From Cyanidioschyzon merolae (lineage: Eukaryota), in the NCBI GenBank assembly GCA_000091205.1, contig AP006501.2: DNA of 64,000 bases; one strand, given 5' to 3'. Shown here piece after piece: positions 39,966-59,869 of the stretch (position 1 is the first letter of the stretch; each line of letters opens with the position of its first letter). Below the pieces are notes generated by a model that saw only the letters and a list, made by a program, of their open reading frames with translations, was not told where the DNA came from and ran no database searches. The position numbers and the translations under genes were made by a program.

Positions 39966-40382
39966 AAGAAGTGCCTTTCTGCGGAACACTGCGAACTGTT
40001 ATGGGTCCATGCGTCCACGCTGCACACGACCGTCGGTAGGACACGTGGCTGCACCGCGTTCCCCGTTCCAGTCCGGTCGATGCGGTACCGTCAACAACCG
40101 CACTGGAGACGTGCTCTTCCAGAGTTCTACCTACGCGTAAACTAAGACCGCGGCGGGTACGTGCGCTTCTTATGGACCCTCTGTGGGTACCCGGCAGAAC
40201 TCGCTAGCGGTCGGGTAACGAGCGCACCACTGCTACGGCTCCTGTACAGGGGCTTCGGCGACGGTGCCTGCGCACTCTCTTTTCTTTTCGCTCACCAAAC
40301 GTTTATGTTGTACCTGGATCCCTTATCGCGGGACGAGAACTGGCTATCGGGAAAACGCCCATCGTGATACGCCTCACCCTCA

Positions 40383-43300
40383 AGTTCCATTCCTTACAAT
40401 TCCTTTCGGATGTACTGGTCGTTTCATAGGTTGTAGCGAGCATCGAGTGCCCGTCGTGCTGCATCCACCTTGGCGCCTAGACAGCTGGTGCAGATGCACC
40501 TTAGAGACAGAACGGCTTTGCCGTACCACTGGGGGCTTCGGCTCGAGATGTGGTGCACCTGACACGGATTCGGAGTCCATCATCATGCTGGGGGCCTGGA
40601 AACTGCGCTGAAAGAGCTACCGTCTGCGGCAGCTCGAAGCGACATGCCGGGAGTCCACTGCGACCAGGGCGACGCCCAGACGCAGCCTAACTGCTGCTCC
40701 TAGTCCCAGAGTCGACTGCGTTGCGGACGAGGTGTTCAGGTCGCACCACTGCACTAGGCACAGGTAAGGGCGTGAAGCACTAGTCTTGCAGACTCGTTCG
40801 GATTGCGGGACGTTTCGCCCTGAAGGCAAACTTTCGAAAGTATGGAAACCTTTTCGCCCTTTTAACGGCTACCGTGGAATGGGACAGGAATCGTTACATC
40901 GTTTCTCGTGAATCGTTCGTCTCTTTCCTTTTTTTCTCCGAATAGCGCGGTCGATAAGCACACCTGCGAGATCACGCAGTCACGAGAGACGACGCGCATG
41001 TCGCCGATGAAGGGAAACGCGTTTCTAACTATGCTCTGACCTATTGCCCTACCGTACATGTTGTATTCGAATTACAGGCGTAGCGGAGTACAGTTTTTTG
41101 AGTTCAATCGCGTTTGAAACGTCAAGTAAGCATATTCAAGTGATGCTGTGCGGTGTATAGGAGAAGCGTTCAATGTGCGTTCTTTCGCAGAAAAAATTCT
41201 AAAAAAGGAAAGTTATGAGAAAGCAAGTCGACGATCGCGGAGGCGCAGTGTCGCCGGCTGCCAGAAAAAGAACGAAAAACGGTGCCGAGCCCAGGAGCAC
41301 AGGCAAAGACGATGAAGCAGAAGCGGGAGGCCCTACGTCAAAGGCCGCGGGAAAGACAACAGTACGACGAGACGGTGGTGAAAGCGTACCTTCGTAAACA
41401 TATCAAGGATGCCTACAAGGAAAAGTTGCGAGAGGCCATCAGAAACCGTGTCGAGTCGTACTCCACGAGTACGAAGAAGGCTTCGTCAGGACTGATGCAT
41501 ATGATGAACGAGATGCACGACAACGCGACGGACACCAGAACAGTCGAGGTTCCGGGGGAATTTTTCAACAAGACCTTTGCTCGTCACCTGATGGTCGGCA
41601 CAGGGGAGCCGTCGACAAACAATGAGCGAGTGCACGCCTTCCACGAAAACTTCGCGGGATTCGGCTTCGAAGGTGCATCGATACAAGGGTTACGGGGATA
41701 TTCACATCTACGGGCCGATCGAGTACCTCGCGAACCTGAGGAACCATTTGACCATGAACCTCGAAGGTTTCATGATAAGCGCCGTGTTTGCGCTCTACCG
41801 GGGCCTCTCTCGCGGGGAAGAGATGGGCCATCTTCGCTGCCATCACCAACGATCGTCAGCATGAACAGGCAATAGAATTTGTCGACAAGATGACATCACG
41901 CAGGAGCATGAATGAAGCATATGTGATCGGTGCAGCTATTCAAGAGCGTCGTGGTGACACGGAGGTAGGGGGTTGGATAGATACTTCACCTCGCACTGAA
42001 AAAATATCACAAAAAGTAAGGAAAGTAAAATGCGCATAATCGGAGAACGCTGGCCCAAGTAAACGTTTTGTCCATGGAAAAAAAGAGCATCGTGAAGTCT
42101 TGGGGCTGGCCAACCCGACAGAAGACGTGTCAGATATGAAAAAAGTGAGAAAAGATGGTACCCCCGCATCCTGCGCTACTTCGTGTGTCTGGACCGAGAA
42201 CTCGAACGCAAGGCGGAGATGGTGCTGGGTGTGTGGAAAAATGAAGAGTCGCGGAGACGGAACGCTTTCCCAATGGGGAAGTGCTTCAACGTGGTTCCAA
42301 TGAGCAACATCAAGTCACATTTTGTGACTATCGACCAAGGCGTCCACTACGGCAACATGAGTGAGATCAGTCCGGTGTTCGGTGTCAGCAGGGAGGAGTT
42401 CACCGGTGAAAATCGGGAGACGTACCGGAAGAGTCTCTTCGGTTTCAAACGTCTCAAAGTGAGCAAGCAGAAGGTATTCACGGGGATGATCGGAACCGAT
42501 GGCGTAGCCACGTGTGTACGCTATCGGAGGTTTGAAGGCGGATTGTCCAGTTCGGCCTTCGATATCGCCCGTGACGAAGCATGAAGAAAACAGGGAGGAG
42601 GATCCTGCCACACAGAAAGTGCAGGATAACGACTTTGTCGTTGACGCGACGAAGCGTGAAGATGAGATGGAGGCGGGTCCTGCTACGCAGAAAGTGCAGG
42701 ATAACGACTTTGTCGTTAGTGCGGATCCCGGGAACACAAATATCATAACCATCGCAGTACCCAAGCGTGCGGAAGATGGTATCAACGGCAACCTACGTCA
42801 GACGGCCCTGCGAGTTTTAAGGTTCTCGTGAGCGGGATGCTATCGAGAATCCGGTATGATCAATGCGAGGAAGAAAATTGAGACACGGAATGCAGGAATG
42901 AAGGATCACCTGGAAGCTTTGCGCGGAGTAACGAGCAGAGGAGCAGGCTTTGAAGCTTTTCCGATATTCATGGAAGGTCGCGTTGCTCATTGGGATGCGC
43001 TGCTGGAGGAGTATACAAAGCCCCGGTGGGCTCGTCTGCGTATGAATCTGTACGGTGGTAAGCAGCGGGCATTCGCCAAATTTTTCAGTCAGTTGAGTGC
43101 CTTGAAGGAGGACGAGAGCCAGAGGCTGGTAGTGGCATACGGAGCAGGGCGTCCACAAAAGGGTGCACACCAGCTCCGTCGACGAGAACGTACAAAGCGT
43201 GTGCACGGCGCTTTGTAATGATACCGATTGATGAGCTCCGAACGTCCTATACACACCACGAACTGGGGTGCACACTTGAGACGGTCGACATGGAAAAGTG

Positions 43301-43695
43301 CCAGCGGAGTCCTGAAGATATGAAAAAGTATGGAGCGCTAACGGAGGAGCAAATGGACAGGAGGGCGAAAGTTCGTGGACTACTCGCATTAGTAAGTACA
43401 ATCAATGGCAAGAAACGCATGGAAATTGTTAACCGCGACTTTAACGCGGCTACCAATATAAGGAGGTGCGCGGTGATGGAGAGAAGACCTCCGTACTTGA
43501 CAAGAGGGAATTTTGTAGGGAAACCTCTCGAGGTGGAATTATACGAGAAAAAGTTGAAACCGGTAGTAGGTGGCCGGTCCAAAAACACTGGGATGCGTCG
43601 ACAAGTCTGTAGAAGACTTTTCGTCTAGGGCGCCGGTCACCACTACTTTGCACTACCGACCACAGCGTTTTTCTTTAGAAAGGCGTTTTTTGTCG
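40383..43695 (+). mobile_element. Fanzor-like element, copy B: 5' module plus full-length but frameshifted nuclease gene plus conserved 3' tail
   Basis: Homologous to copy A along its whole length. It has an extra ~630-bp N-terminal coding segment (41010-41640) that is absent from copy A. Confidence 0.6.
41215..43628 (+). pseudogene. TnpB/Fanzor-like RuvC nuclease gene, disrupted (at least 5 frame changes and an in-frame TGA at 42829-42831)
   Basis: The N-terminus is basic and NLS-like (KQKREALRQRPRERQ...). The RuvC-I motif is [15 protein letters not shown] (42514-42831) and the RuvC-III motif is NRDFNAATNIRRCAVMERR (43218-43628). The coding sequence is split over ORFs 41282-41875, 41622-41864, 41788-42039, 42183-42584, 42514-42831, 42856-43218 and 43218-43628. 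Confidence 0.65.
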
Positions 43696-44118
43696 GCGAT
43701 GTGAGGATTCTTTTACATGCTTAAAGTACTGCGTCAACCAGATCGAGTCCGTGTCTCGAGCTGAGCACTTCCGGTAGCGTCTGGTCGTCGGCCATTTGGG
43801 AGCACGCGCCCTAGACGAGCATCGTGTGTGTGGCATTACCTGTGTGGACCAGGTTTGTCAAGGGAAACAATTTCACGCTGAGTTCCAAAAGTTCGGTCCT
43901 TGTGTATTTTTGCTTGCCAGGAGCACAGGTCACCAGCAAGGAAGTTCGTGATCAGATACTGCCAAGATCCGACGAGTCGTGTAGCATCGTCCCGGAGATG
44001 TTAGGGCAGGCCCCCGAGCTACCACTCGCAAGCCACGCATTCGCCTCGCAGGTACGTGAATCATCGACAAGAAGCCGGATTCAATGGCACATCCTGAACA
44101 TCTCAGCAAATCGTGATC

Positions 44119-45435
44119 TCATTCCTGATCGTCGACGGGCTCGGTCTCAGAGGAATCGTGCAGGCGCTCATCCTGATCTGGTGAATGTGCCCTTTCGTGG
44201 CGATCCGTCCATCGACTCCGAGGCGAGGCAGCTCGTCGTGATGCCAAATCAACGCGCTGTCGAGTTGTAGCGTTGCTGTTCTCTGGGCGAGGTCTCAGTG
44301 CTGCCTGGGTGCCTTCCCCGGGGCGTCCTTCGGGCGAGCGGAAGCGCCGCCAATCCTCTTGCTGGAAACGGCCTTCTCGTCCAGCGGACTTGTCCAGGAA
44401 CGGTCGACGGGGGTCTGCTGCATCGCGTTGGACAGTTCCACGAGCGTAACCGATACTGATTTCCTGCCCCATGATGCAGGTGCCTTGGAGTTGATTAAGC
44501 GCTACCCGAGCATCTGCCTTGGAGGTAAAGCGAACGAAACCGTAGCCCAAGGAGTGGCCCCGTTGCCGATCACGTATAATGCGACAGCTCAACAGATCTC
44601 CATAGGGTGAAAACGCCGCAATGAGGTCGCTTTCCGTTACCATCGGAGCGAGATTCCCCACGTACAACATGACATCGATGTACGCATTGCCTGCGGAAAA
44701 GGTATCCGCGTCAGCTTTCGTCGCCCTCGCTGCCTCCGCGGCAAGTGCATCCGCGATCACTTTGCGAACAGGCTTTAGTCGTGCTTCAGCGCGTGCAGTC
44801 GCTTCAATGCGGGGAAGCGGTCTCACTCCCATGGTCGGCCGATCCGATACCAAAGTGTCTGCGGAAATGAGATCCATTGCGGATGCTACGAACTCGTGCA
44901 GGCACTGGGTGCACCGGCAGATGCGTGCGGTCTCAAAGAGAGACGCCTCAACCTGATAGCACATCGCGCACTCTGGGCACTGGAGATACACTGCATCCGG
45001 ATCGAGAAGCGGGCCTACATACTCATCCGCATCTTCGGTCTTAGACTCGGGCGAATCCAGTGACGGATCCGTATTCGATGTAGCAGCAGAAGCAGAAGCA
45101 GAAACCGGCGGCTGTATCGGATCTGTTTCTTGAGCGGGGACCTCTTCGTAAACCGGCTGAGATGCAGATTCGGGCGTACTGCTTTGCTCGGCGTAATGGG
45201 GCGCATCCGGTGGACTGTCCGTAAGCGCTTGGCTCGAATTTGCAGCGGTGGTGGGGAAAGACGCATGCGGCCCAGCAGATCCATGTATAGTTGCGGATTC
45301 GTCTTGCGGAGGGGCATTCGGGTACCGCGCTGGTGCTGCCGAAGGCCTCCATAACTGGTCGAGTTCGCTTCCAATCCATTCGCCGTCATCCTCATCATAA
45401 AAGGCGCGATTTTTGGTGCCTTTCATTCGCATCAT
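44119..45435 (-). CDS. RNA-binding protein with RRM domain and an upstream CxxC...CxxC zinc-ribbon
   Basis: The RRM is LYVGNLAPMVTESDLIAAFSPYGDLLSCRIIRDRQRGHSLGYGFVRFTSKADARVAL (RNP2/RNP1). The zinc ribbon is YLQCPECAMCYQV...CRCTQCLHEF. The first convincing ATG (MMRMKGTK) is at 45435; upstream ORF sequence looks non-coding. Confidence 0.65.
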   Translation of the reverse strand: MMRMKGTKNRAFYDEDDGEWIGSELDQLWRPSAAPARYPNAPPQDESATIHGSAGPHASFPTTAANSSQALTDSPPDAPHYAEQSSTPESASQPVYEEVPAQETDPIQPPVSASASAATSNTDPSLDSPESKTEDADEYVGPLLDPDAVYLQCPECAMCYQVEASLFETARICRCTQCLHEFVASAMDLISADTLVSDRPTMGVRPLPRIEATARAEARLKPVRKVIADALAAEAARATKADADTFSAGNAYIDVMLYVGNLAPMVTESDLIAAFSPYGDLLSCRIIRDRQRGHSLGYGFVRFTSKADARVALNQLQGTCIMGQEISIGYARGTVQRDAADPRRPFLDKSAGREGRFQQEDWRRFRSPEGRPGEGTQAALRPRPENSNATTRQRVDLASRRAASPRSRWTDRHERAHSPDQDERLHDSSETEPVDDQE

Positions 45436-46323
45436 CGGCTCAAGAGGAGTGATCCGCGGGAGCGATTTTCGCGCAGCACTCGTCGATCGGTGGCAGTGTA
45501 CAGTTCTGTGGAGCGCTCGCCAGTTAGCGGCTTGTGCGCTCGGTTTCAGAGCGTGCTGCTGCTGCTGCTGCCGCACGAGCAGCGGAAACCCAAAGCCAAG
45601 CATGCGCGAGCTGGCGGCTCCGTGCGAGAACCATACGGGCGTTGGGGCCATGCATTTCACGCGACCCATGGTATATGCTGAAGAGGCAGTACGAAAAGAT
45701 GCTCCTTGCTCTCGCAAAGAATGCTGCTGACGTCGCTGAATACGCTTCCCCACGCTACGGTAACGGCCGTGAAGAGCTCCGGCCGGTGATCGGTCCCGCC
45801 GTCCAAGGAAATGGAGAGACGACGACCTGCAACAACAGGCTCTGTTGAACAGCGTCAGTGTTTGTGTTTGCGGAGGCTCCACTGCGGCCCAAGAGGGGGT
45901 CGTCGTCTCTCTCGCTCGTCGCTCGGAACTACGCCGTCGACTCGCTTGGGTCAGGCAACGGCACCAAACTGTGATTTCGGCACCAGATCCTTACGGGTGC
46001 AAAGTCTCCGTCGACGCCCACGACACCGTTCCACAGCCTGAAGCGTTTGAAACGCTTTGGAGTCCGCCCAACACCAGCTGCGCTAGGAACTGGTGAGACT
46101 CGGCTTCGCGCCCAGTGCAGCGACGCCCTTCGCCCCTCGGTGACACCGTTTGCGCTCAGTAGCGACGGCACAGAGCACCGACTGTTGTTCCAAGCAAGAG
46201 CAGAGCGATACTCGTTGACAGCGGAGACTCCTAGTAGCGCCGGTCGCCTATCGCTCCAAAGTTTCCTCAGGGGCTACCCGAGCAAGGCAACGGGACGGCG
46301 TGCTGACAAAACGCAGATGTTGT

Positions 46324-47680
46324 CCGCGTAGAATGAAACTGGAACAATGTTCCGCTCGCTCTGCACTCGTCTTGCGATTTGATTCGCAAAAGTTCTTGGA
46401 TGCACAGCATCGATACGCCAAGTGCAGCAACAACGGCTTACGGACTCAAACGTAGTTTTCGGGATTCTCGGTCGGGCGTTTTTCTCTCGGAGTGACCTGT
46501 TCGTCGTCCATTCACCGCTGGAATGCGTTCCGTCGCCAGATTCATGTTGAGTCGCGCCACCCTCGAACCAGCGTCCCTGGCATAACCTATTTTATGATCG
46601 AATGCATTGGGGCAAGCATCCATTCTTCTGATTTTTTCAAGTATGGGATGCTCAAATCGCGCATTCCTCAATATGTCGTATCTCTATGTTTCGGGGCCAT
46701 TGGTGGATGCAGCGATTCGCGGCCCCGGATTCACGACGGCTCAAGAGACGCGATGTCGTCTCCTGGACGCTTGTGCACCAGCTGATGCCCAGAGTTCGCC
46801 GCAATGGTCTCAGGTCAAACGATCGCTTCCGTTCGAAGCACGAGTCCGCCGCTCTGCACGGCTATCGACGAAACATCGTCCGGCAGCAACACGAGCCTCT
46901 CACGGGATATGCATTCGAAGGCTCCCATCGCTTTCATTTGCATGAACAGCGGTCTTGGACTCGGAGTCGAGACGTCGCAGGAATCGCGGCCAGTGGAGCG
47001 CTCGGTACCGTACGGCACGAGCGGGACGTTGACGGATCCAAGGCGTTTTGGCCTGCTTGCCGGCCTGGACTTGACGCTTACGGTACTTGTTGCACGGTGG
47101 ACGGCATCGCGTTCCCTAAACCCTCCTTCGGATGGAACGCGCTGCACTTGCGCGTGCAGCGCACACCGTACTCGCCGATGCGATCTGCCCTGACTAGCGC
47201 CCGTGATCGTAGCGTACGGCACCGGGCGCGGAAACGGCGGAGCGCATACAGGGGATCCCGCGGTACCCGTCAAGACCGTGTATCGAGCGATGAAGCGCGC
47301 CTTCAGATGACGCAGTGCAGGGTGTGGCGGAGAACGTGCCGCGCGCACACAGGAACTCGTGATACGAGTCAGGAGTCACGGCTGCACCCCAGGAAGGCTC
47401 GTGAATCGCAACTTGCGCCTGTACATGAAGTGCGTCGACGATACCGGGGAGCTGCGAAATCGGGACGTGCACGTTGGCCTCAACATCGTTCAACAGCTGA
47501 CGTCGGAGCTGGATGTGCGGGAGGTACCGGCGTTTATCACTCTGCAGGGAATTCGGAGAAAAGAAAGAGGCAGGCACAGAAAGCGCACGACGACGACGCA
47601 TGGATACGTAGCAATCGGAAGAATCGGGAAAGATAGGTTGTGGGCGCGAGATTCACCTCGTGGACCTGTCAAGATACATA
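46324..47680. repeat. Left arm of a 1.35-kb, ~99% identical inverted repeat
   Basis: Reverse-complement identity with 51523-52880 was checked directly on several stretches. Identical 316-aa ORFs (46686-47636 on plus, 51566-52516 on minus) differ at 2 residues. Confidence 0.85.
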
Positions 47681-47954
47681 CTAGATTGGGTACTCTTGCA
47701 TGATCCTGAACGCGACAGCGCGGGTGGCGTCGCCGGTGATTGCCCACATCTGGAGGTCGCCGCGGCCGCTGCGGCGGCGTGCAGCCTTCCGCCCGCTTCC
47801 GGGCGAAGCGCGACGACGCCCCGACGTCCAAGAATGATGACGGAACGAGGCATCGCCGCAGTTTCGTGCATAGCGGACAAAAGTTTTCGCCATTGTGCAC
47901 TATTTCGGAACGGGCTGGAGCGCTTACGATAAAAGTATCGATCAGGTGATATCC

Positions 47955-48776
47955 ATGTTCGTTCAGGGTAGCATTCTGCGACACAGTTGCACGCTCGGAA
48001 AACGGAACTCGAGCTTCGCTGGTGGTGTTGCGGTAAGCACGGCGGCGCCAACCGCAGGGCTCGCCGCTGCCCGGACGCTGCGGTTGCGGACGCGTGGCTT
48101 CCGGTCGCTTGTTGCCGTGCATCAAGCAACGAGTGGCACGCACTCTATCAATTCATATACGACGGGCGGCCCAGTCCAGGCGCTCGGGCGATATGTACTT
48201 GTTCGACTGGACCGCAAGGAGACACAAACCGTTGGTGGTATCGTGCTGGCGGAGAGCGCACAGGAGAAGCCTTCTCGGGGCACAGTGGTGTCTGTTGGCG
48301 GTGGTGCTTGGCACCCGAACGCACCAGTCAAAATGCCTATGGCTGTCAAGCCGGGTGATGTTGTGCTCTTTGGAAAATATGGAGGAACCGAGGTAAAAAT
48401 GGACGACGAGGATCACGTCTTTGTCTCGATGGATGACATCCTCGGTGTATATGATGGAGGCAAAGTCGACGACCCGCAGGCTTTGAAACCTGTGTTCGAT
48501 CGCGTGCTCGTTCAAATGGAGAAGAAAACCGAGAGGCGGAGTGCAAGTGGTATTATCGTTGCACCCACAGCGAGCGTTGATGAGGACGCCAAGGCCGGCC
48601 GAGTCGTCGCTGTTGGCCCGGGTCGTTTTATGGTGAACGGCGAGTATGAGCCAGTGCCCGTCCAAGTCGGTGAGTGGGTCATGTTTCGCAAGTACAGCGG
48701 CTCGGAGGTGAAGTTTGGCGACCAGGAATACAACGTTGTGCGGATTGCAGATCTGCTGGCCAAATGGAAAGCGTAG
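47955..48776 (+). CDS. Cpn20-type co-chaperonin (two tandem GroES/Cpn10 domains) with transit-peptide-like N-terminus
   Basis: Domain 1 is YVLVRLDRKETQTVGGIVLAESAQEKPSRGTVVSVGGG and domain 2 is FDRVLVQMEKKTERRSASGIIVAPTASVDEDAKAGRVVAVGPG. A tandem Cpn10 arrangement is characteristic of plastid Cpn20. The first ATG is at 47955. Confidence 0.8.
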   Translation: MFVQGSILRHSCTLGKRNSSFAGGVAVSTAAPTAGLAAARTLRLRTRGFRSLVAVHQATSGTHSINSYTTGGPVQALGRYVLVRLDRKETQTVGGIVLAESAQEKPSRGTVVSVGGGAWHPNAPVKMPMAVKPGDVVLFGKYGGTEVKMDDEDHVFVSMDDILGVYDGGKVDDPQALKPVFDRVLVQMEKKTERRSASGIIVAPTASVDEDAKAGRVVAVGPGRFMVNGEYEPVPVQVGEWVMFRKYSGSEVKFGDQEYNVVRIADLLAKWKA

Positions 48777-49304
48777 AGCAGGTATTGACTTGCCGATGAA
48801 GAATGCGCCCTTAGGAAATTGAGTGCACGCCCACCTATCCAAGAACTTAGCCGTGACCGATGCGGCCTTTGGAAAATCTCACGTAAAGCTGGATGTCCGG
48901 TTCAGGCTCTACGCAGGAGCGAGCTGCGCATTCCTGTGAGGTGCTGCACGCCCGTACGGAGACTCCGGTCGGCGGACTTGCCGTCGCTGGTGCATACAGG
49001 GAGCCGCTTTATCTGTTTTAAAAATGCGGTGCAGCATGGTCTGGTCCGGTCTAGAGCAGGGCGCTCCTCGGTTAGAAGCGTCTCCTCGTCCGCGCACAGG
49101 ACGGCGCTGGCGAACCGTTACCGTAGCAGCAAGTCGGCCGCAGTGCCTCACCAGACCAGTGTCCCCCACGACTGACCGAGACGCAGTCGGTGCTTTCGTC
49201 AAAAAAGCTGCGGACAGGCATTGCCTATCAAGCAGATAATCCAAAGGTTTCCGCAGCTGCATCGGATGCGCAACTGAATCAGCATACTTTCTCTATCTTA
49301 TGAT

Positions 49305-50114
49305 TCAGATTCCAACAACCGGTGCATCTGCCTGCGCAGTCTCCGCCTGGAGTGAGGCGGCCCCGCTGATCGCCGCGCCCTGCTCGAGACGAACGCCAGT
49401 ATCTTCGGGAGCATCGCCATGCACTTCCATGAGCTTGGTCAGGTCAAACTTCGGAGCTCGAATCAGTTTGCATTTGCGAATGTATACGTTTTGTAAGGGA
49501 TAAATGTTTTTGCATGCCTTTTCGATCTCCTTCCCAATAGCCTCTGGAATGATATTGGCAACGAAATCTCGTAGAGTGCCCTTCGATGTCTCTTGGACCA
49601 TGATATCCACCATCTTCTTCCGGATGGCGCGCTCCTGTGACTTTTTGCAGTAGCTTGTTTTTCGAATCTGCCCCTGCCGCCGCTTTGTGAAACCAATACA
49701 GAACAGACGCAAAACGTAGTCATCCAAGGTCTTCACATCGACATGAGCTTCGATGGTGGTCTGCCACTTTCGCATCATCGAAGACAGCTTATCGCGCGTA
49801 AAGTCGAAACCATAGAACTGTGTCAAGCAGTTCCGTCCCTGAACATCCTCGCAACGAAGCTTGATCTTGCGATATGCGAGGTCTTCATCTTTCTGCAGGT
49901 CCGCCAGTGAGATCTCGAAGACACGTCCTTTGAGTGACTCCGATGCTATTCGAGTGCCAGAGGTTTTCGACACGATTGTCTTTCCCGCCTGTCGGACAGA
50001 AAAGTAGGAGGGCGCCTTCACGTCATACCACTCCTTGCGGGAGTAGGGATCCAATATCTTTTTCTTGCTTCCCTTCTTTCCCTTGGAGAGACGCTTGTTC
50101 TTGCCCTGGGCCAT
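49305..50114 (-). CDS. RPS3A: 40S ribosomal protein S3a (eS1)
   Basis: [38 protein letters not shown]... is colinear with eukaryotic eS1 over 269 aa. ATG start, no interruption. Confidence 0.9.
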
Positions 50115-50639
50115 GGTGTTCGCTTATTGCCTCTGAGCGAGTAGTGATTCGTTCCGTTAACAACACAGCGTTGCCGCGGACACAACGCTCGATCGTTGGT
50201 CTATCCAGAAAGAGGAGATCCGCCAGCCTGCAGCGAAGCGATGTTTCCTCCTGTCGTGTGCAAACACTCTGAAGCGCAACTCGTGGACGATTGGAGACCG
50301 GCGCGAATGCGACGCTGCGGACGGCACGACGAGGCGGTGTGTCCATTTATTACCATCTCGTACCATCTTTTCCTTTTATGGACTTATTTGGATCAGATGG
50401 AATCGTCCTGCACGACGAGGTGTCGTGTCCTTTGATTGCAAGTTTATCTGATTTGTTTCGTTCATTACAAAGATGTAAAAGATATCTTTCGTAGTCCCTG
50501 CATGTGCGTTCCGCTTATGCGTGTGTGACACCAAATTCATGCCGACCTGTGAGCTCAGATCGCGCACTCGATACCCGTGGTTGGGAAGGTGTCCATGATT
50601 CTAAGCCCCGCCTCCATGTTCGATGACCTACACTTCTCC

Positions 50640-50800
50640 TCGGCGACACTAACTGTTTCGTATGCTCCATTGTACGCCGGGCCTTCACGAAGCGGTCTCA
50701 TGAGCGCCTAACAGCGCCTGTGCGGAGGTTGCTCGGAGACAGAACGGCTCTGCCGCACGACCGGGGAGGCCGGCTCGAGCATACATGTTTCATGAATGGC
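50640..50800 (+). mobile_element. Solo fragment of the Fanzor-like element 5' module
   Basis: agcgcctaacagcgcctgtgcggaggttgctcggagacagaacggctctgccgcacgaccggggaggccggctcgag is homologous to copy B 40470-40545 and copy A 7800-7875. Confidence 0.5.
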
Positions 50801-51522
50801 TCATTCGGATCCGCATTCGTCGCTGCGATTGCCCATGAAGAGCTGCGCTGCGCTTGGTGACTGATTTCTATGCACTCTCTCCGCAAACTGAAGAAAACAC
50901 GCCTGCAAGGTTGCAGTGACGGTGTCGCATTGATAAATAGCATACATTCTACTTTGCACCCGTCAAGCCGTCACAACGCAGATGATGCCGTACCGGACAC
51001 CTGAGGTCACTGGCATCAGGACGCATAAGGAGCGTGTAGCTAATCTCAGCGCGCTATGCGCAACCGCGCGGCTCGCCAAGAGAGCACCAACGCTGCACGA
51101 ATCGGGAAGATGCGGCACGCGGGTACACATGCACGTGGCATCGCGATGACTCTGTCCGCGAGTGGACAGATCGAGTATGGGGAGACATGCCCCGCCATCG
51201 CACCTAATGCAAGGCCTGTATTAGGGATCAATACCCATTTCTGCGCCCGTGGAAGCATGTGCATATTGTCCAGGGCGTTTCTGTAAAAGCTCTGAGAGCG
51301 CACAATTGTGCAACCATCCTGTACATGAAGTCACCAGTCAATAAGTCCCAGTACGAAGTATCGACCGAGACTCGAACTGTGCAGGATCGTACATGCTATT
51401 GGCGTGTTCGTCCTCGTTTTTCGTGCGGCAGAGCCGTGGAACTTGCCTCACGAGTATTCACGCTGCCAGGTACATCATATCTGCGAGGGTTCCAGTCAAG
51501 CCCAGCCTACATCTATGCCGGG

Positions 51523-52880
51523 ATCAATCTTGACAGGTCCACGAGGTGAATCTCGCGCCCACAACCTATCTTTCCCGATTCTTCCGATTGCTACGTATCC
51601 ATGCGTCGTCGTCGTGCGCTTTCTGTGCCTGCCTCTTTCTTTTCTCCGAATTCCCTGCAGAGTGATAAACGCCGGTACCTCCCGCACATCCAGCTCCGAC
51701 GTCAGCTGTTGAACGATGTTGAGGCCAACGTGCACGTCCCGATTTCGCAGCTCCCCGGTATCGTCGACGCACTTCATGTGCAGGCGCAAGTTGCGATTCA
51801 CGAGCCTTCCTGGGGTGCAGCCGTGACTCCTGACTCGTATCACGAGTTCCTGTGTGCGCGCGGCACGTTCTCCGCCACACCCTGCACTGCGTCATCTGAA
51901 GGCGCGCTTCATCGCTCGATACACGGTCTTGACGGGTACCGCGGGATCCCCTGTATGCGCTCCGCCGTTTCCGCGCCCGGTGCCGTACGCTACGATCACG
52001 GGCGCTAGTCAGGGCAGATCGCATCGGCGAGTACGGTGTGCGCTGCACGCGCAAGTGCAGCGCGTTCCATCCGAAGGAGGGTTTAGGGAACGCGATGCCG
52101 TCCACCGTGCAACAAGTACCGTAAGCGTCAAGTCCAGGCCGGCAAGCAGGCCAAAACGCCTTGGATCCGTCAACGTCCCGCTCGTGCCGTACGGTACCGA
52201 GCGCTCCACTGGCCGCGATTCCTGCGACGTCTCGACTCCGAGTCCAAGACCGCTGTTCATGCAAATGAAAGCGATGGGAGCCTTCGAATGCATATCCCGT
52301 GAGAGGCTCGTGTTGCTGCCGGACGATGTTTCGTCGATAGCCGTGCAGAGCGGCGGACTCGTGCTTCGAACGGAAGCGATCGTTTGACCTGAGACCATTG
52401 CGGCGAACTCTGGGCATCAGCTGGTGCACAAGCGTCCAGGAGACGACATCGCGTCTCTTGAGCCGTCGTGAATCCGGGGGCGCGAATCGCTGCATCCACC
52501 AATGGCCCCGAAACATAGAGATCCGACATATTGAGGAATGCGCGATTTGAGCATCCCATACTTGAAAAAATCAGAAGAATGGATGCTTGCCCCAATGCAT
52601 TCGATCATAAAATAGGTTATGCCAGGGACGCTGGTTCGAGGGTGGCGCGACTCAACATGAATCTGGCGACGGAACGCATTCCAGCGGTGAATGGACGACG
52701 AACAGGTCACTCCGAGAGAAAAACGCCCGACCGAGAATCCCGAAAACTACGTTTGAGTCCGTAAGTTGTTGTTGCTGCACTTGGCGTATCGATGCTGTGC
52801 ATCCAAGAACTTTTGCGAATCAAATCGCAAGACGAGTGCAGAGCGAGCGGAACATTGTTCCAGTTTCATTCTACGCGGGT
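51523..52880. repeat. Right arm of the 1.35-kb inverted repeat (reverse complement of 46324-47680)
   Basis: See left arm. The inner boundary is ...ctcgtggacctgtcaagat on both arms. The outer boundary is ccgcgtagaatgaaactgg. Confidence 0.85.
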
Positions 52881-54039
52881 GTAGACTCTTGATAATGCAA
52901 GGATCGGATTGCGCGCAGATGTGCAACGCGATACAGCTCGAAAGGCGCCGCATGGATACGATGAAGACGAATCATAGCGCAATCCGCTGTTTCATGTAAG
53001 CAGCACTCTGCTTCGACTCCCTCATGACGTCGGGAGGCAGCATTCTGTGCAGAGATGACAGCGGCCTCTGAATCGCATCAATTCCATACGAACGCAGAGC
53101 ACGATTCGCTGTGCAGACAAATGTTATGAAGGGTGTTGAGATGCTTGGAGGCGTGCTGGGCTGCCTTTGCTAGAGTGCTTACTTCCGTGCTGGTATCGAA
53201 AACATCATACACATTGTGTGGTGAAACGCAGTCTTGCAGCACCACTCCCTAGGCGAATACACATTCTGTAAGCGCGAGGCATCGAGTCCGTCTGGTGCAC
53301 CCGTGGATGCACCCGCTCATCACCATAGCGCATCTTGTGTAGGGACACGGTATAGGGGCGGGGGTTCCGAACGCGGTGCTTTTGCTCGATTGCCACCGTT
53401 TCGCGGATACGTGAACGTAAACTGGTCAGATCGACGAATTCGATGTGCCTTGGCGGTCCGGTTCAAAACCAATATTTGCTGATGCACAGCGGAAAGACCT
53501 GTCCACAAGAACCAATCCTAGAAGGTGTTTGAATGAACCCCGAGGCAGACATCCAAGACAGCTCGCAAAAGCCACCACCAAACATCACTAGGCATCTTAT
53601 TTGCAATCTTCATCGCATCTTGCATTCTACATTTGACGCAATTCAGTACCGACGCGCATGTCATCCCGAGAGACATGCAATCGAAGGAGCTGGACCCAGG
53701 TCGTATAGAGACGAGCCACTTCGCCTTTGCCCCATGGGAAGGACTAACGGATGCTTCCGTTTGTTTTCCCGAACTCATGGTTGGACTTCCGATACGCTCG
53801 ATGCCTCCGCATGACACTATAAAAACCAGATCATGACGTCTCCGAGCGCGCACCTCGTACGCAGGGCTCCATACCGACCTCCGGCGCCAAGAGAGAAGCT
53901 CACATCTTCCAGGTCGCTCGACTTGGATCCGATCGTCCTGCTCCAGCCTCCATAGTTTGCATGGCGACACATGGGTGTATCACGATTTTCGTGAGCATTT
54001 GTGGTAAGCTGCGGATCCGCATCCAGATGTCTCTGCTTG

Positions 54040-55413
54040 TCAGACGTTTCGCAGATACTCCATGGCCGCTTCCTGTGAGAGAAACACCGGAATCGATCGA
54101 CTTGCCGAGACGCAGCCAGGCGGTGGTTCTGCTGGGCCTTGAGCCGGCATCCATGACCATTCGACCGTCCATCGGAACGGGACAGCTTCCTCGCGGGTAA
54201 CGCTCGGCTTTACCCAGAGACAGAGAAAACGCACACCACAGCAGGCAGCGTGTCGCATCGCTACCGCAAATGCCGGATCGATCGACTCTGCCGGGCAGAG
54301 CGCTCGCGGCGGATCACTGCGCTGAACCACAAAGATGACCAGAGCCTGCACCGGCATCTCAGGTCGTGCTCTGGGATATTTCGCTGACCCACGGGCAATG
54401 CTCGCAAGTTCCTGCAAATGGCGACTCGCTCTGTCCGATACAGCATCTGGAAAAAGCACTAAACCCTCTGCGGAACCACGCATGGTAACCGATTTGACCT
54501 CGATGAAAATGCGATGATCGAGGCAAAAGTCGCAACGACTTGTTTTCCTTGTTTTCGTTGTGGAAGCTTGCCATGCTCCAGTGTCTGGAGGAGCGTTTTC
54601 GCGTCGTCTGCGTTCAGTATCCGGATCCTGGCGTGGGAGGCTCGTCTCGCGTTCGACCTCATGGAAATGGAAACGTGGAACGGCACGCGGCTCCATGGCG
54701 TTATCTCCCGCCTCAACATCGGACAGCGCTTCACCGATGGCCTCCATGAGGCATGGAGCACGACTTTCGAGCGCCTCCCCAATGAGTCGGTTCGCCGCCA
54801 ATGTGTGGACACAGACCAAGGCCCCTGTGCTCGGCTCGGTGGCGATAATCCAGCGAAATGGATGCTTGGCTTTCGCTCCGCGATCAACTGCCGCCAGATA
54901 GACAGCAGACTCGTTCGGAACAGCGTACCCCTTGGCTGGAGCGCCTTCGTCGCCACCGGTCATGCGACCTGGGTTCAGCACGCTGGCAGTGACCTCCGTC
55001 CCGTCATCGAGGCGCACTCGTGCGAGGAAACGTTTGTAACGTTCGAGAAGAACGCCCCGAAGAAGCGCTGACATTCGCGTGGTCTGCATATTGGAATCAC
55101 TGGAGACTACCGGCGAGAGAGCAGCTGGGCACGAAGCCCCGGCACGCTTGAAACTCGTTTTGGTCAAACGAGGTGGCCCAGTCGAGTTTCGTTCAGGAAT
55201 AGGGTGTTTTCGTATTCCACGACATCTCTGCATATAGTTGGTGGTGTTTTCAAGCGACCCTTCTCCTTCACAGGCACGATTTGTGCACTTGTTTGGCTCA
55301 GGTGTTTCAGCGTGCCGCGGCGCCAGCGCCCCGTGGGCACCCAAACAGTGACGCTTGGGTTCTCTGTTTAAACGTTGCCCCGGGTACCAGTCCTGTTTGG
55401 GATATTGTTCCAC
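54040..55413 (-). CDS. SfsA-family (sugar fermentation stimulation protein A-like) nuclease-fold protein with N-terminal extension
   Basis: RGVLLERYKRFLARVRLDDGTEVTASVLNPGRM, CDFCLDHRIFIEVKSVTM and LFPDAVSDRASRHLQELA correspond to SfsA motifs (YKRF..., EVKsvTL, FPDA.tsRG.KHL.EL). The ORF-maximal start is GTG; the SfsA domain begins near MSALLRG. Confidence 0.55.
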   Translation of the reverse strand: MEQYPKQDWYPGQRLNREPKRHCLGAHGALAPRHAETPEPNKCTNRACEGEGSLENTTNYMQRCRGIRKHPIPERNSTGPPRLTKTSFKRAGASCPAALSPVVSSDSNMQTTRMSALLRGVLLERYKRFLARVRLDDGTEVTASVLNPGRMTGGDEGAPAKGYAVPNESAVYLAAVDRGAKAKHPFRWIIATEPSTGALVCVHTLAANRLIGEALESRAPCLMEAIGEALSDVEAGDNAMEPRAVPRFHFHEVERETSLPRQDPDTERRRRENAPPDTGAWQASTTKTRKTSRCDFCLDHRIFIEVKSVTMRGSAEGLVLFPDAVSDRASRHLQELASIARGSAKYPRARPEMPVQALVIFVVQRSDPPRALCPAESIDPAFAVAMRHAACCGVRFLCLWVKPSVTREEAVPFRWTVEWSWMPAQGPAEPPPGCVSASRSIPVFLSQEAAMEYLRNV

Positions 55414-56708
55414 TCTGCGGAGGCGTTTCCTTCCCAGCCGTTCGGTGTTGCTCCCGAAAAGATTCCCTTGTCAGCGACGTACACCGACTGCATACTCTAA
55501 ACTGCGGCAGCAACAGTCGACTGTACAGAAGTCGCATCAGAGCCGCTGTTCGGTCGTCCCGCGCCAGCCATGAAGTCCGTAATGGTGACAAGAACCCCAT
55601 GGCGCGGCGATATGCCTTTTCATCGTGGAGCATTGATCGTTCGATGGATCTTATCGTCTTTTGCCGAACACGCGACTGCTACCCCAGACCAGTAGGTAAC
55701 CTCGGTTCTTCAACTGACGATTGGGCGTCTTTTCCAGCAGCTATTTCGACTTGAGAGCTGCAGTTTCAACCAACGCTGCTCTAGGCAGCGCAGCATGGGT
55801 CGCGTTTCGCCACTGTAGTCAAGGGCGCCATCGCTAACGTGCTCATATTCGGATGCCACACTTGCTGCGGGGATGCGCCTTGATTCACAGGGTGCGCAAA
55901 ACGACACAGAAACGTTTCGCATCACTGGATGGGCTTCACTTCAGAGATACCGTACGATACTTTCTGGTAGATTCACACAATTCATTCATAGAAACGCACT
56001 GTGCCTAGCAAGTGAGTCATCGTGGGCTTTCAAAGTTTTCATCACGCTGAGGCATGAGGAATCTGAGCATGCCCCTATCCCATTGGCGCTGATACAATCG
56101 AGCACGGCGATGAAGAATCAGCCCTCTGTATTCATGGCGACGGGCATTTAGCGTAGGATTGCCGCCTAGTTCGTGACTTGTTGTTTCACGACTACCTGCG
56201 AATGCAAGCGCAGGACACGGTACCCAAGGATGCGAGCTGCCAGGGCACCAACTCGCACGAGCATCCTCGAGCAGCTACCATTCCTGGTATTGCAAGTGGC
56301 CCTGCGCCTGAAATGCATTCGCTGTAGGCTCAGCAACCGTGCTTCTGCTGGATCGATCAACTCTCTGTTTCTGAGACGAAGACGGTCTCACACTAAACAA
56401 CAAAAATGTACAAGAATCGGGCGACGCAGTTGAGTGCACCTCCCCGTTGACTTGTGGCATGTGCTCATCCGCAGGGGTGCTCAGTTTCCGGATCAATCGT
56501 ACTCCAGAGGAAATGTCGCGTCCACGCGCGCGCCGCATCGACGGTCGACGCCTTCCAGAAGGCGACTCTGGATGAACGTTGCATCACGACCCGCGATATT
56601 GACGGCTTTCGTCCGTTCTATTCTAGGAGTCATTGTTTACTTTCTAAGGTTTGTTCGCTTATTGAGGAACTTAAAAAAGTATTCACTCGTGTGTACCTCG
56701 ACTTGAAA

Positions 56709-57365
56709 ATGACCTGCCGTGACAATAGCGACCTGTCACCTGATCAACCGGTATACTGGCGTGACCGCTGGGAGAAGGGCGTAACACCGTGGGACTGCGG
56801 CTGTGCGCACCCGTTACTCGTTCACTTGGCACCACGCTTGCCGTCCGGACGCGCTCTTGTTCCGGGGTGTGGCTCTGGATACGATGTGATTGCGCTGGCT
56901 AAGCAGGACCCGGCGCGTCAGGTAACCGGCTTGGATCTTTCGGAACTCGCGTGCAAACGTGGTGAGTCGATGCGCGACGAGGCAGGCCTCTCTAGCAAGC
57001 AGGTACAGTTCATCGAAGGTGATTTTTTCAAATTCGATTATGAAGAGCCCTTTGATCTCGTGTACGACTATACCTTCTTCTGCGCGCTGCCTCCGCATCT
57101 GCGCAAGCAATGGGCAGCTCGCATGGCGGAGCTCGTGAAGCCAAGCGGCATCCTGTTCACGCTCATGTTTCCTGTACGGGATTCGGGGACGGGCGCGGAA
57201 GGAGGACCCCCTTTCTCGGTTTCTCATGAGGCGTATGCCTCTGTGCTGGAACCAGCCGGTTTCAAGTTGCTCGAATGTGGCGACGTTCCATCTGCGTATA
57301 GACGTCCGAAGACACCCTCACCGGGTGCTGAGCTCTACGGTCTCTGGCAGCGCGTTGGTGCGTAG
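56709..57365 (+). CDS. Thiopurine/thiol S-methyltransferase (TPMT/HOL family) SAM-dependent methyltransferase
   Basis: WRDRWEKGVTPWD is the TPMT N-terminal signature. LVPGCGSGYDVIALA is SAM motif I. The first ATG is at 56709; the ORF-maximal start at 56454 is GTG. Confidence 0.7.
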   Translation: MTCRDNSDLSPDQPVYWRDRWEKGVTPWDCGCAHPLLVHLAPRLPSGRALVPGCGSGYDVIALAKQDPARQVTGLDLSELACKRGESMRDEAGLSSKQVQFIEGDFFKFDYEEPFDLVYDYTFFCALPPHLRKQWAARMAELVKPSGILFTLMFPVRDSGTGAEGGPPFSVSHEAYASVLEPAGFKLLECGDVPSAYRRPKTPSPGAELYGLWQRVGA

Positions 57366-59869
57366 GCGACGTCTACGTACCTCGCCGGGGAACCAGCAGC
57401 AAGCATCGTTGTGGTGTGCGTCGGACCGAACGCTTCTCGATAGACGGGCTAGATTGGGTCCGCAGCGACGCCTTGCGAGCACCTTCACCAGCGGTATCTG
57501 GACATTAAAGGTTTGTATTCGGGAACGGAATGTTTGGATTGTACAGCATGCGGAGAAACTGCTGCGGCACGTATAGGGCTTTGGGGATAAGCGCAAAGGC
57601 GGGACCTTTGGTGCCGTTGCATTAAGAATGATAGTTTATTTTCTTATTTGCCGCGAAGGATTTGTTCTCCGTGGCCTAGGATGAGATCATACGATCTGTA
57701 AAGCTTCACACATGTTGTGCATGTTTCCAGGGCGACCGTGCTCGAGCGCCGAAGAAGGGTTTCGCAGGGTACTTGCACCGCAGCATGCATGGTCCGCGCT
57801 TGCTGCTCACCAATATTAAAAACCTCATCCATTGCCCATAGTGGCGTTGAAGGATCCAGAAAAAGCAAGTCCTGCTGTGTGCGTCTTGTGCCGATATGCT
57901 GCGGACGCGAACCTCCATGAGGAACGCGCTCAGGGAACGGAGAAAATTGCCCTTGCTCCGCAGTCATTCTAGGAAGGATTTATGGTTTTGGTCTTTCTGG
58001 CCTCTAGGTTGACACCTTTTGAGGATGAAAGACCTCGTACGCACGGGTCGTTCTCGCGGTGGTCCATGTGATTACCATGTCCATAGGTGGGATCGTTCCA
58101 AATCCAGCATCCCTTTCGGATGCGAAACGCTGCGGTTCGGAGCACTGATCTGGTGGTATGCATGTGGATACCGCGTTACCCGGTGACAACCAGGCTGTGA
58201 ATTTTCACTTTATGAAATCTGGCTCAGCATAGCACGCGAGTCGCTCATTGGTGCAGACGCTCACCCACATAGGTTCAAGCCACGTCAGGCAGCAGTGACG
58301 AGAGCGTTGCAGGCTATCGCGGCGGGACGCAGAAGCTGATGTGGCATAAACGTCCGGGAACGGCCTTGATGCACCGATCAAGGCTCCGTAGGTCACGCGT
58401 GGTAGATATGTATATGAAGTTGTAAAAGTTGCGAGTCTGGCGTCCGTGATCCATCTACAGCAGCGCCAGATTTGCATAGAAGACTGCACCGCTAGCGCTT
58501 CTTCTGCTTTTCGATTTTTCCGAACTGATGTTAGATGCAAAGCCTCGATATTTGAAGTGTAGCAATGAGGGCGTACGTTTTCGTGCGTAGTGCTAGAGAT
58601 CTCTGACCCATTCACGGAGAAGCGCGTTCGACGCTTTGCTGGCGGGATTCGTCACGTCACCGCTATCACGAAGATTCGCGATGTTCTCGAGCAAAACATT
58701 CATATCTATGTGGTGCAATTATTCAATGCATACGCACAAGTGTCCACTTGTCTCCCTTGAGTACGTCTAACATGCTCAAAACATGCATTGTTCAAGATTT
58801 GACCTTCTGTTTCAGGGAAACTTGAGGGCGCAACAGTTCGCACCGTTGGATTATCATGGAAAAAATACTCGACGTCGTTTTTTGAGGAATTCCTAAAAAG
58901 CTCATCCCGAAAGCTCACTGAACCCGTCACGTAAACTGCTCGATTCCGTTCGAAAAATGATTCTCTTCCCTTGGTAGTCATCAATGAAACGGCACTCGAC
59001 AGCCGTATGATACCCCTCGCAGGGCATGTTCTCAGAGACTATCTTCTCGACTGTTTCCATGGAAACCAGTCTTGGCACCAGACTTTGATCGCAACGATCG
59101 CTACCAGTGGAGCTATCGTTACTGCATGGCACGAGGAAAGGGTATACGGATCGACACTTTTCGACCTGTTCTCTAGACTGGATTTTGCCTCCGGTACTTG
59201 TTCCATCATGGACAACACCGCGTTCCGAAAAATCCGTCATCGAATGGAACGGCATGCGCTTCCATGTGCAGCGAAGCGTATACTTGTTAGGTGAATCGTC
59301 CAGAAGAAGGCCACGATCGCAGGGCACGGCACCGGATAAGAAAACAGATCAGAGCAATGAGAGCAGCTTTCTGTAACCGTGAACTGTGCGTATCGAGCAA
59401 TGGAGCAAGCGTTCACGCGCTACATTTGGGCCGGTTTGGAGGAAGTTTGACGGATATACTGTAGAGCTTGTCCACATTCAACTGTCACCGCTGTGAACGG
59501 CGCACCGAGGCTATGCATAAAGGAGATCGACCTGACGAACGAAGCATAGACCACAACTACCGCCTATCCGTGGTATGCATCAACAACCTCCGGAATCAGC
59601 GTCATTGAAACCTGAGCGCTACCGTCAACTTCCCTCGACTGCGGGCAACAGATCTGTAGTGGAAGAGGCGACCGGCTGATTGAATGCCGAAGATAGTAGG
59701 GTTGAAGCGCAGGCATTCTTAGAATAAAGCTCTTAAATTCTTATGTTGATGATAGTGGGAAGATAACCACACATTCGTGTGTTCGTCTGGGGAAGAGCCT
59801 ATGTCCTAGTTTAGAGTAACATGGCAGTGAAGCGAAAAATGTACCATGACGATATGGGGTAAATTAATA

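Follow-up and report, generated by a model that had tools for sequence, protein, structure and literature searches.

A near-identical inverted repeat from an old repeat family brackets a derived inversion of the Cpn20–RPS3A block in Cyanidioschyzon merolae 10D

In the human Xq28 inversion, arms of 11 kb enclose 48 kb of DNA. Staggered breaks in Drosophila produce inversions with inverted duplications at their breakpoints, and intramolecular replicative transposition of bacterial IS/Tn elements yields an inverted segment bracketed by inverted copies. The Xq28 rearrangement, which involves FLNA and EMD, is one of the human inversions mediated by inverted repeats (PMC3961182; bioRxiv 10.1101/2020.04.20.051185), and chromosomal inversions also arise by ectopic recombination between transposable element (TE) copies in opposite orientation (for example PMC12368964, on TE-associated breakpoints). 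The Fanzor1 elements CMe-1A and TE-N2_CMe are dispersed in C. merolae and have neither terminal inverted repeats nor target-site duplications (Bao and Jurka 2013, PMC3627910). Strain 10D of C. merolae, a model alga, is prized for its extremely simple, low-redundancy genome and its efficient homologous recombination; it is rare there to find two essential genes enclosed by a 1.35-kb inverted repeat of 99.6% identity. We analyzed such a locus in a 64-kb stretch of DNA (the window), with the following features.

46324–47675, plus strand: left arm, one complete unit of repeat family A, with the 5′ end of the element at the outer edge and its 3′ end at the inner edge
51527–52878, minus strand: right arm, a second copy of the family-A unit, inverted; same comparisons as for the left arm
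47676–51526, no strand: spacer, 3851 nt, reversed in 10D compared with three outgroup cyanidiophytes (on mapping, Cpn20 and RPS3A of the outgroups align forward and their flanks in reverse)
47955–48776, plus strand: Cpn20/CPN21, the chloroplast co-chaperonin, 273 aa (Pfam Cpn10 twice; identical to BAM82806.1)
49305–50114, minus strand: RPS3A (eS1), 269 aa, identical to BAM82807.1
about 50560–50780, no strand: weak fragment similar to the TE-N2-like 5′ module of CMe-1A, a Fanzor1 element (blastn 3e-6 and tblastx 4e-6, to 40324–40547 and 20368–20533)
44119–45432, minus strand: RRM-domain gene, the left flank marker; its neighbour is RPS3A in the outgroups and Cpn20 in 10D
54040–55074, minus strand: SfsA-like gene, the right flank marker; its neighbour is Cpn20 in the outgroups and RPS3A in 10D

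A repeat search and base-by-base comparison gave two arms of 1352 nt each, which differ by 5 mismatches and 0 indels (99.63% identity; left-arm coordinates 46435, 46436, 46679, 46722, and 47422). The near-identical inverted repeats that had been predicted around Cpn20 and RPS3A are therefore real; the location given for them (46324–47680 and 51523–52880) was right, and their extent was 2–5 nt too long. Both arms have sharp edges on both sides, with complementarity gone directly outside them. The 316-aa ORFs that they contain, at 46686–47636 (plus) and 51566–52516 (minus), differ at exactly the predicted number of residues, two (A/P and V/A), and their exact sequences are absent from called-gene records. 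Chance cannot explain a 1.35-kb match at such identity. When the arm was compared with the window by blastn, the sole match besides the two arms was one of 68% over 188 nt, and near-identical copies were seen in only two flank contexts among the assemblies searched, which speaks against a high-copy dispersed repeat at arm identity. Cruciform formation needs arms with no spacer or a very short one, and the 3851-nt spacer makes the cruciform extrusion proposed earlier implausible.

All six frames of the arm were without a Pfam match, and neither Rfam at gathering thresholds nor a tRNA scan gave a match anywhere in the window. No recombinase domain was found in the six arm frames or in the neighbouring ORFs. 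Terminal inverted repeats were sought within the arm, and none were present. Target-site duplications, which the original prediction had suggested looking for outside 46324 and 52880, were sought in direct, swapped, and inverted configurations; none was convincing, and there was none at 46323/52879. A sigma-70 promoter/terminator scan was set aside because the host is eukaryotic.

Old paralogues of the arm lie elsewhere in the window, and one segment of the arm bears a marginal likeness to Fanzor1 proteins.

13601–14956, plus strand: A1, about 58% identical to the arm and collinear with it
58457–59784, plus strand: A3, about 60% identical to the arm and collinear with it
47200–47307, plus strand: marginal Fanzor1-like remnant of the left arm, reading 'VIVAYGTGRG...VPVKTVYRAMKRAF', with a stop codon and a frameshift in its frame; mirror copy at 51895–52002 (minus)

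Within the window, the arm is collinear with A1 and A3 over about 1.2 kb, nearly its whole length; the homology starts at most about 15 nt from the outer edge and continues to within about 35 nt of the inner edge, so that dispersed copies with common ends occur inside these 64 kb. Codon periodicity was tested across the family-A alignment, and none was detected. Each arm is thus a complete unit from a dispersed repeat family that is old and non-coding and that we call family A. The earlier view that the arms hold no recognisable gene stands as far as Pfam and Rfam are concerned; it missed that the arm is a complete unit of an old repeat with a marginal Fanzor1-like remnant. No further near-identical family-A copy is known, an observation that fits poorly with two recent independent insertions.

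These shared ends also bear on the proposal that a piece of unique intergenic DNA, with no link to mobile elements, was duplicated in inverted orientation and came to flank the two genes by accident. The existence of just two copies at such identity would agree with this, as would the lack of terminal inverted repeats, target-site duplications, and an intact ORF with a known domain. However, a random duplication would ignore the ends of a unit that is found twice more in the window at 58–60% identity, whereas both ends of the duplicated segment coincide with them, and the spacer is itself inverted relative to the outgroups. We therefore regard a plain segmental duplication as very improbable.

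The arms are transposon-derived, and family A is probably a decayed relative of the C. merolae Fanzor1 elements. A Fanzor1 (TnpB-like) ORF is expected to have the RuvC D-E-D motifs and a zinc-finger region; a six-frame hmmsearch with a 74-sequence Fanzor1 profile matched the remnant with E = 0.002 over a segment of only ~35 residues; the match is a marginal one, to the conserved segment that precedes the RuvC-II glutamate. The frameshift-corrected peptide scored 11.3 bits, whereas none of 300 shuffles exceeded 1.2 bits, and BLASTP gave E = 0.005. Neither A1 nor A3 matched the Fanzor1 profile in the remnant region, hhalign of family-A peptides with two CMe-1A Fanzor copies was not significant (1.4% probability), and the arm had no DNA-level similarity to CMe-1A. 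When a family-A profile built from frameshift-corrected peptides was run against 5.8 billion proteins, only the arm and A1 themselves were returned, and PDB sequences gave no relevant match. Thus, we infer the Fanzor1 ancestry of the arm from a single marginal 35-residue match. Fanzor1 C-terminal fragments adjoin both other family-A copies. The spacer fragment of a Fanzor-like 5′ module that had been pointed out earlier was recovered as the weak match listed above.

We compared the locus with that of Cyanidiococcus yangmingshanensis (GCA_013995675.1) and of two further cyanidiophyte contigs (loci L032, L033, and L034). The order SfsA(+) Cpn20(+) RPS3A(−) RRM(+) was found at all three loci. Relative to this order, the Cpn20–RPS3A block of 10D is reversed with respect to the SfsA/TPMT/GluRS flank in L032, L033, and L034, and also with respect to the RRM/actin flank in L032 and L033. 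The order recorded in GenBank for C. merolae 10D, CPN21-RPS3A-Sfs1 (BAM82806, BAM82807, BAM82808), is that of the window. No inverted repeat or family-A match occurs at the three outgroup loci; the gap between SfsA and Cpn20 in Cyanidiococcus is only 580 bp, and outgroup intergenic DNA at the locus does not align with that of C. merolae. Since the outgroups keep the flanking genes and carry the block in the opposite orientation without the repeat, the 10D arrangement is a derived inversion with breakpoints at the arms. The predicted inversion of the spacer between the arms has thus taken place. The further idea that the arms are the ends of a mobile composite or foldback element is unsupported, because Cpn20 and RPS3A occupy their ancestral position between SfsA and RRM in all outgroups and target-site duplications are lacking.

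Cpn20 and RPS3A remain tail-to-tail in either orientation of the spacer, and each has the same arm sequence upstream whichever way the spacer lies. A flip should therefore be selectively neutral and not act as a regulatory switch. Inverted repeats around a short gene-bearing segment do have a superficial resemblance to invertase systems and to the yeast 2-micron FLP system, in which light the locus could be a programmed switch, flipped by a site-specific recombinase or for the regulation of Cpn20/RPS3A expression. However, no recombinase or Pfam domain was found in or beside the arms, the upstream sequence of both genes is unchanged by orientation, the arms are a 1.35-kb decayed repeat rather than short recombination sites, and the structure is missing in related species. 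A programmed switch is, in our judgment, scarcely credible.

Near-identical repeats carry a general risk of misassembly, and one arm might have been a collapsed or duplicated mis-join in the reference. This general risk is all that speaks for an artefact. The 10D genome is a finished sequence, and all four junctions (RRM flank/arm, SfsA flank/arm, arm/Cpn20 end, and arm/RPS3A end), outer and inner alike, recur in many independent JGI, ENA, and Logan assemblies, metagenomes included, from different samples and assemblers. Most of these assemblies end exactly at the arm, as expected of a true two-copy repeat. The locus is therefore no assembly artefact, and we give that explanation, which had been raised at the outset, practically no weight. 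One contig (L005) with an apparent structural variant upstream of RPS3A proved to be a chimera joined to an unrelated amidohydrolase gene.

Seven metagenome contigs cross an arm, two in the 10D orientation and five in the ancestral one, in short-read assemblies that cannot phase a 1.35-kb repeat. Present-day flip-flop is accordingly only a possibility, as the path chosen through a short-read graph may be arbitrary. We also set aside contig SNP haplotypes as proof of spacer orientation, since these are mosaics and the arm is too long for short reads to phase. The polymorphisms themselves are informative about the arms. An A/T polymorphism at arm position 102 occurs on the SfsA-side and RRM-side arms alike, and a C/G polymorphism at position 1260 adjoins both spacer ends; both positions are within k-mer reach of unique DNA. 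At position 734, both 10D arms have T and every wild arm has C. That wild strains carry the same polymorphisms in their two arms indicates that gene conversion takes place between the two. Arm haplotypes in short-read contigs may be consensus mixtures, which weakens arguments from shared polymorphism except for sites near the arm edges.

Taking these observations together, we propose that recombination between oppositely oriented family-A copies inverted, or keeps inverting, the Cpn20–RPS3A block, while gene conversion homogenises the arms; we put the probability of this reading at about 0.7. Two oppositely oriented copies of the ~1.35-kb family-A unit would first have come to flank Cpn20 and RPS3A. 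Homologous recombination between these arms would then have turned the 3.85-kb block around in the ancestry of 10D, or may still be inverting it, and non-crossover gene conversion would hold the arms at about 99.6% identity. The efficient integration of DNA by homologous recombination in C. merolae (PMC3764038) counts for this explanation. Recombination between pre-existing arms would thus be the cause of the inversion, and flipping may continue today. No intermediate with one arm, or with two arms in proven ancestral orientation, was found in the data; that the arms preceded the inversion is accordingly what we infer.

The arms and the inversion could also have arisen in one step, if a resident family-A copy was duplicated in inverted orientation as the segment inverted, so that the second arm and the 10D orientation appeared simultaneously, either by intramolecular replicative transposition or by staggered breaks at the ends of the element that were then filled in and joined. 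A single event would cover the inverted orientation, the near identity, the coincidence of arm edges with unit edges, the inverted spacer, and the lack of other young copies. The remaining family members differ by about 40%, which gives no sign of a recently active master copy, and the 2:5 split of contigs fits random path choice in a population with the 10D orientation only (binomial p about 0.23). On the other hand, contigs in the ancestral orientation with two arms would have to be mis-assemblies, and five independent contigs are of this kind. The target-site duplication was not found in the expected inverted configuration, how these elements transpose is not known (PMC3627910), and the evident gene conversion between the arms means that inversion-capable recombination operates anyway. 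We consider a one-step origin unlikely.

Bolder versions of either account can be imagined. The locus might be a cassette in a eukaryotic nuclear chromosome that still flips to and fro, recurrently in C. merolae populations and perhaps in cultures, and that concerted evolution of its Fanzor-derived arms maintains in this state; or it might have originated in a single step through breakage precisely at the termini of a Fanzor-family element, by an RNA-guided Fanzor nuclease acting in trans, for instance. We hold this pair of possibilities to be doubtful. If true, breakage at Fanzor ends would be the first example of such elements driving chromosomal rearrangement.

The inversion is small and lineage-specific, and whole-genome dot plots would overlook it; a 2026 telomere-to-telomere genome comparison reported rearrangements on chromosomes 3 and 19 only (PMC13353863). 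The locus offers a natural reporter of how often intrachromosomal recombination and gene conversion take place in C. merolae, and it calls for caution in gene targeting or short-read assembly close to it.

How does this locus compare with the systems described above? Its architecture, an inverted segment between inverted copies, is the same as that of the products of staggered breaks and replicative transposition, in which the copied sequence was single-copy before the event, but it carries no diagnostic target duplications, and the ancestral single-copy state is not seen in the data. The arm shares with CMe-1A its dispersal in C. merolae and the lack of terminal inverted repeats and target-site duplications, and differs from it in having no intact ORF, a length of 1.35 kb as against about 3 kb, and marginal profile support. 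As in TE-mediated inversions, the breakpoint repeats belong to a dispersed family; unlike in those, family A is old and degenerate, with its other members about 40% diverged, and yet the arms are 99.6% identical, which implies recent local duplication or strong concerted evolution. A further likeness is to the human inversions, of which Xq28 likewise has highly identical repeats flanking a short two-gene segment, breakpoints within the repeats, homogenisation by gene conversion, and no obvious gene change to be expected. The C. merolae locus is much smaller, with 1.35-kb arms and a 3.85-kb spacer, belongs to a unicellular red alga whose genome is very compact and poor in repeats, and has an orientation polymorphism that is only a candidate. 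In kind, it is probably an ordinary, if clean, inversion by recombination between inverted repeats, a mechanism that is already well known.

An inverted pair of near-identical sequences, which had been predicted to bracket the Cpn20 and RPS3A genes, was confirmed by a repeat search as the sole inverted pair within 44000–55000. The arms are 1352 nt each, with 3851 nt between them. Base-by-base comparison revealed five mismatches (left-arm positions 46435, 46436, 46679, 46722, and 47422) and no indels, blastn gave 99.63% identity, and complementarity stopped at once beyond both arm ends; the coordinates predicted originally were too long by a few bases. As predicted, the 316-aa ORFs of the two arms differ at 2 residues. 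The arms and the genes around them (flanking genes assigned by Pfam) are as follows.

38556–39989, minus strand, actin-family gene (left flank)
44119–45882, minus strand, RRM-domain gene (left flank)
46324–47675, left arm
47955–48776, plus strand, Cpn20/CPN21, identical to BAM82806.1 of Cyanidioschyzon merolae 10D
49305–50114, minus strand, RPS3A, identical to BAM82807.1 of C. merolae 10D
51527–52878, right arm
54040–55413, minus strand, SfsA (right flank)
56454–57365, plus strand, TPMT (right flank)
60772–63078, plus strand, Glu/Gln-tRNA synthetase (right flank)

The SfsA-like neighbour groups with BAM82808.1, and the consecutive accessions of CPN21, RPS3A, and Sfs1 agree with the orientation in the window.

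Searches with RPS3A, SfsA, RRM protein, and Cpn20 queries yielded dozens of contigs from JGI, ENA, and Logan metagenomes, 99.2–99.8% identical to the window, and the arm ORF retrieved further ones. Upon mapping, four junctions (RRM flank–arm, SfsA flank–arm, arm–Cpn20 end, and arm–RPS3A end) each recurred many times with the same sequence in contigs from all three sources, contradicting the suggestion of an assembly artefact. Contigs mostly ended at the edge of an arm or a single k-mer length (127, 141+) inside, and many, of about 5.2 kb, comprised the spacer and a single arm, as expected for a genuine two-copy inverted repeat in a de Bruijn graph. Among the mapped metagenome contigs, the arm occurred in no third flank context, which argues against a high-copy dispersed repeat at arm identity. 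The RRM-side flank (46323–46283) carries a 1-nt deletion polymorphism about 27 nt outside the arm (contigs L019, L022, L023, and L024); the junction itself was unchanged in all strains. Contig L005 (1–2277) fuses DNA from upstream of RPS3A to an amidohydrolase gene that is unrelated and lower in GC; we rejected it as a structural variant, an assembly chimera being the likeliest explanation. Contig L031 (OGCG01023134.1, 1143–1321) tracks the SfsA-side arm at 98% identity to arm base ~920 and then changes to a sequence only ~65% similar to A1 and A3, the older relatives of the arm in the window; it may be a further paralogue, a tract converted by such a paralogue, or a product of chimeric assembly.

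Three outgroup loci were reached through Cpn20 homologues: L032, from Cyanidiococcus yangmingshanensis (GCA_013995675.1; Cpn20 75% identical); L033, an 84.7-kb JGI contig from another cyanidiophyte; and L034, an 83-kb ENA contig from a more distant one. All three have the order GluRS(−) ... SfsA(+) ... Cpn20(+) RPS3A(−), followed in L032 and L033 by RRM(+) and then actin(+). In blastn, the outgroup flanks matched the window reversed, and Cpn20 and RPS3A matched it forward. Neither an inverted repeat of ≥30 nt nor a family-A (see below) or Fanzor match was present at any of the three loci, and in Cyanidiococcus just 580 bp separate SfsA from Cpn20. Thus, the ancestral order is SfsA-Cpn20-RPS3A-RRM, without arms. 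By comparison, C. merolae carries both arms, and strain 10D has the intervening block inverted. Cpn20 and RPS3A still occupy their ancestral location, which rules out the transposed composite element that had also been proposed.

What, then, are the arms? Sensitive blastn within the window showed them to be collinear with A1 and A3 (58–60% identity over ~1.0–1.2 kb). The A1–A3 homology begins at the equivalent of arm base 15 and runs to ~35 nt from the inner edge, so that each arm comprises a single, whole unit of a dispersed repeat family, family A; this, together with the inversion of the spacer relative to the outgroups, contradicts plain segmental duplication. Conservation among the three family-A sequences was much the same in each codon phase (0.58, 0.55, and 0.56), with no three-base periodicity, indicating that the family evolved as non-coding DNA. 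There are no terminal inverted repeats within the arm, and no pairing of ends gave convincing target-site duplications outside the arms. The arms had been said to carry no recognisable gene. This held for Pfam in six frames, Rfam, and a tRNA scan, all negative, but a Fanzor1 profile (74 sequences from an exhaustive HMMER search), scanned over the window in six frames, matched both arms weakly, besides CMe-1A copies and two short fragments, X1 and X3. A programmed switch was rejected on the empty Pfam result. The repeats concerned are listed here.

7712–10235, CMe-1A copy (Fanzor1), degenerate, with stop codons or frameshifts
13344–13463, plus strand, X1, Fanzor1 fragment beside A1
~13601–14956, plus strand, A1
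19979–20525, minus strand, solo 5′ module (TE-N2_CMe-like)
40381–43694, CMe-1A copy (Fanzor1), degenerate, with stop codons or frameshifts
47200–47307, plus strand, weak Fanzor1 match in left arm
51895–52002, minus strand, weak Fanzor1 match in right arm
~58457–59784, plus strand, A3
59974–60117, minus strand, X3, Fanzor1 fragment beside A3

CMe-1A has been described as ~150 copies of ~3 kb lacking TIRs or TSDs, with TE-N2_CMe as its 5′ 635 bp (Bao and Jurka, PMC3627910); the window copies, 70–78% identical to each other with recognisable RuvC motifs, and the solo module agree with this description. Each copy contains a 70–75-nt tandem duplication (9103–9247 and 42570–42717; repeats 86–93% identical) coding for a repeated acidic peptide immediately upstream of the RuvC-I motif. 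In the arm, 'VIVAYGTGRG...VPVKTVYRAMKRAF' aligned to the Fanzor1 consensus 'vvvaYGsAkf...SVPttrafkecskrf', and the frameshift-corrected peptide scored 11.3 bits, as compared with ≤1.2 bits in 300 shuffles. Other collinear likenesses (W.RLR, GGE, and NRDVHVGLNI vs NRDFNAATNI) were seen by eye. Because BLASTP gave only E = 0.005 and hhalign was not significant, we regard Fanzor1 ancestry of the arm as probable but unproven; if true, the degenerate gene would read inward in each arm, outer end to inner end. A further repeat family, X (13050–13632, plus; 59802–60390, minus; 68% identical), has a Fanzor1 C-terminal fragment (profile positions ~568–615; E = 3e-6 and 1e-9). It adjoins A1 upstream in the same orientation and lies downstream of A3, inverted; the side-by-side placement of X and family-A units is thus seen twice.

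We then considered exchange between the arms, using variable sites whose distance from an arm edge allows linkage to unique DNA inside a k-mer or read. At such sites, the same alleles occurred on both arms. Position 102 (A/T) of the SfsA-side arm was T in L003, L007, L009, L016, L029, and L031 and A in L001, L004, L006, L010–L012, L014, L015, and L030; that of the RRM-side arm was T in L017 and L022 and A in L002, L018, and L019. Both alleles of position 1260 (C/G) were found beside the Cpn20 end and beside the RPS3A end. At position 734, the two 10D arms read T and all wild arms C, and four of the five differences between the 10D arms were private to 10D, the fifth (position 1098) being polymorphic in wild arms. 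This pattern indicates that the arms were all but identical at the split between 10D and the wild strains (~0.5% divergence) and that they swap sequence via gene conversion. Since homologous recombination is efficient in C. merolae (PMC3764038), crossovers that invert the spacer are expected.

Seven distinct metagenome contigs crossed a whole arm, two with the 10D orientation (Ga0080006_1153873 and Ga0078972_1005398) and five, with both arms present at least in part, with the ancestral one (Ga0207433_10018996, three Ga05560xx contigs, and ENA k141_837681). The split does not depart from chance (p ~0.23), and the contig paths may be arbitrary, because either orientation gives the same k-mer graph and the arm exceeds short-read inserts. 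Ends of Ga05560xx contigs (L004 5221–6759 and L006 5325–5387) carry a 30-nt deletion and small duplicated or folded-back SfsA-region pieces, suggestive of chimeras from amplification or assembly; the same samples are among those that show the ancestral spacer orientation.

The best-supported explanation is non-allelic homologous recombination between inverted transposon-relic copies, together with conversion. The two copies would serve as substrates, recombination between them would have flipped the block holding the two genes at least once, and gene conversion would keep them homogenised. A one-step origin, whether through intramolecular replicative transposition or through staggered breaks made where the element ends, is economical and would account for the lack of any other young copy, other family members being ~40% diverged; it predicts that no genome combines two arms with the ancestral orientation, and we consider it less likely. 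Cruciform extrusion, another earlier suggestion, is contradicted by the 3851-nt spacer.

A 2026 T2T comparison of 10D with Yellowstone strain MS1 by whole-genome dot plots reported rearrangements only on chromosomes 3 and 19 (PMC13353863), and the 3.85-kb inversion appears not to have been described previously. The locus is of modest interest: it offers a natural reporter of recombination in a model alga whose genome is very simple. Inverted repeat-mediated inversion is an already known class of mechanism, of which this locus is a further case: it works like the human Xq28 FLNA-EMD inversion polymorphism (PMC3961182; bioRxiv 10.1101/2020.04.20.051185) and likewise resembles inversions with transposable elements at their breakpoints (PMC12368964).
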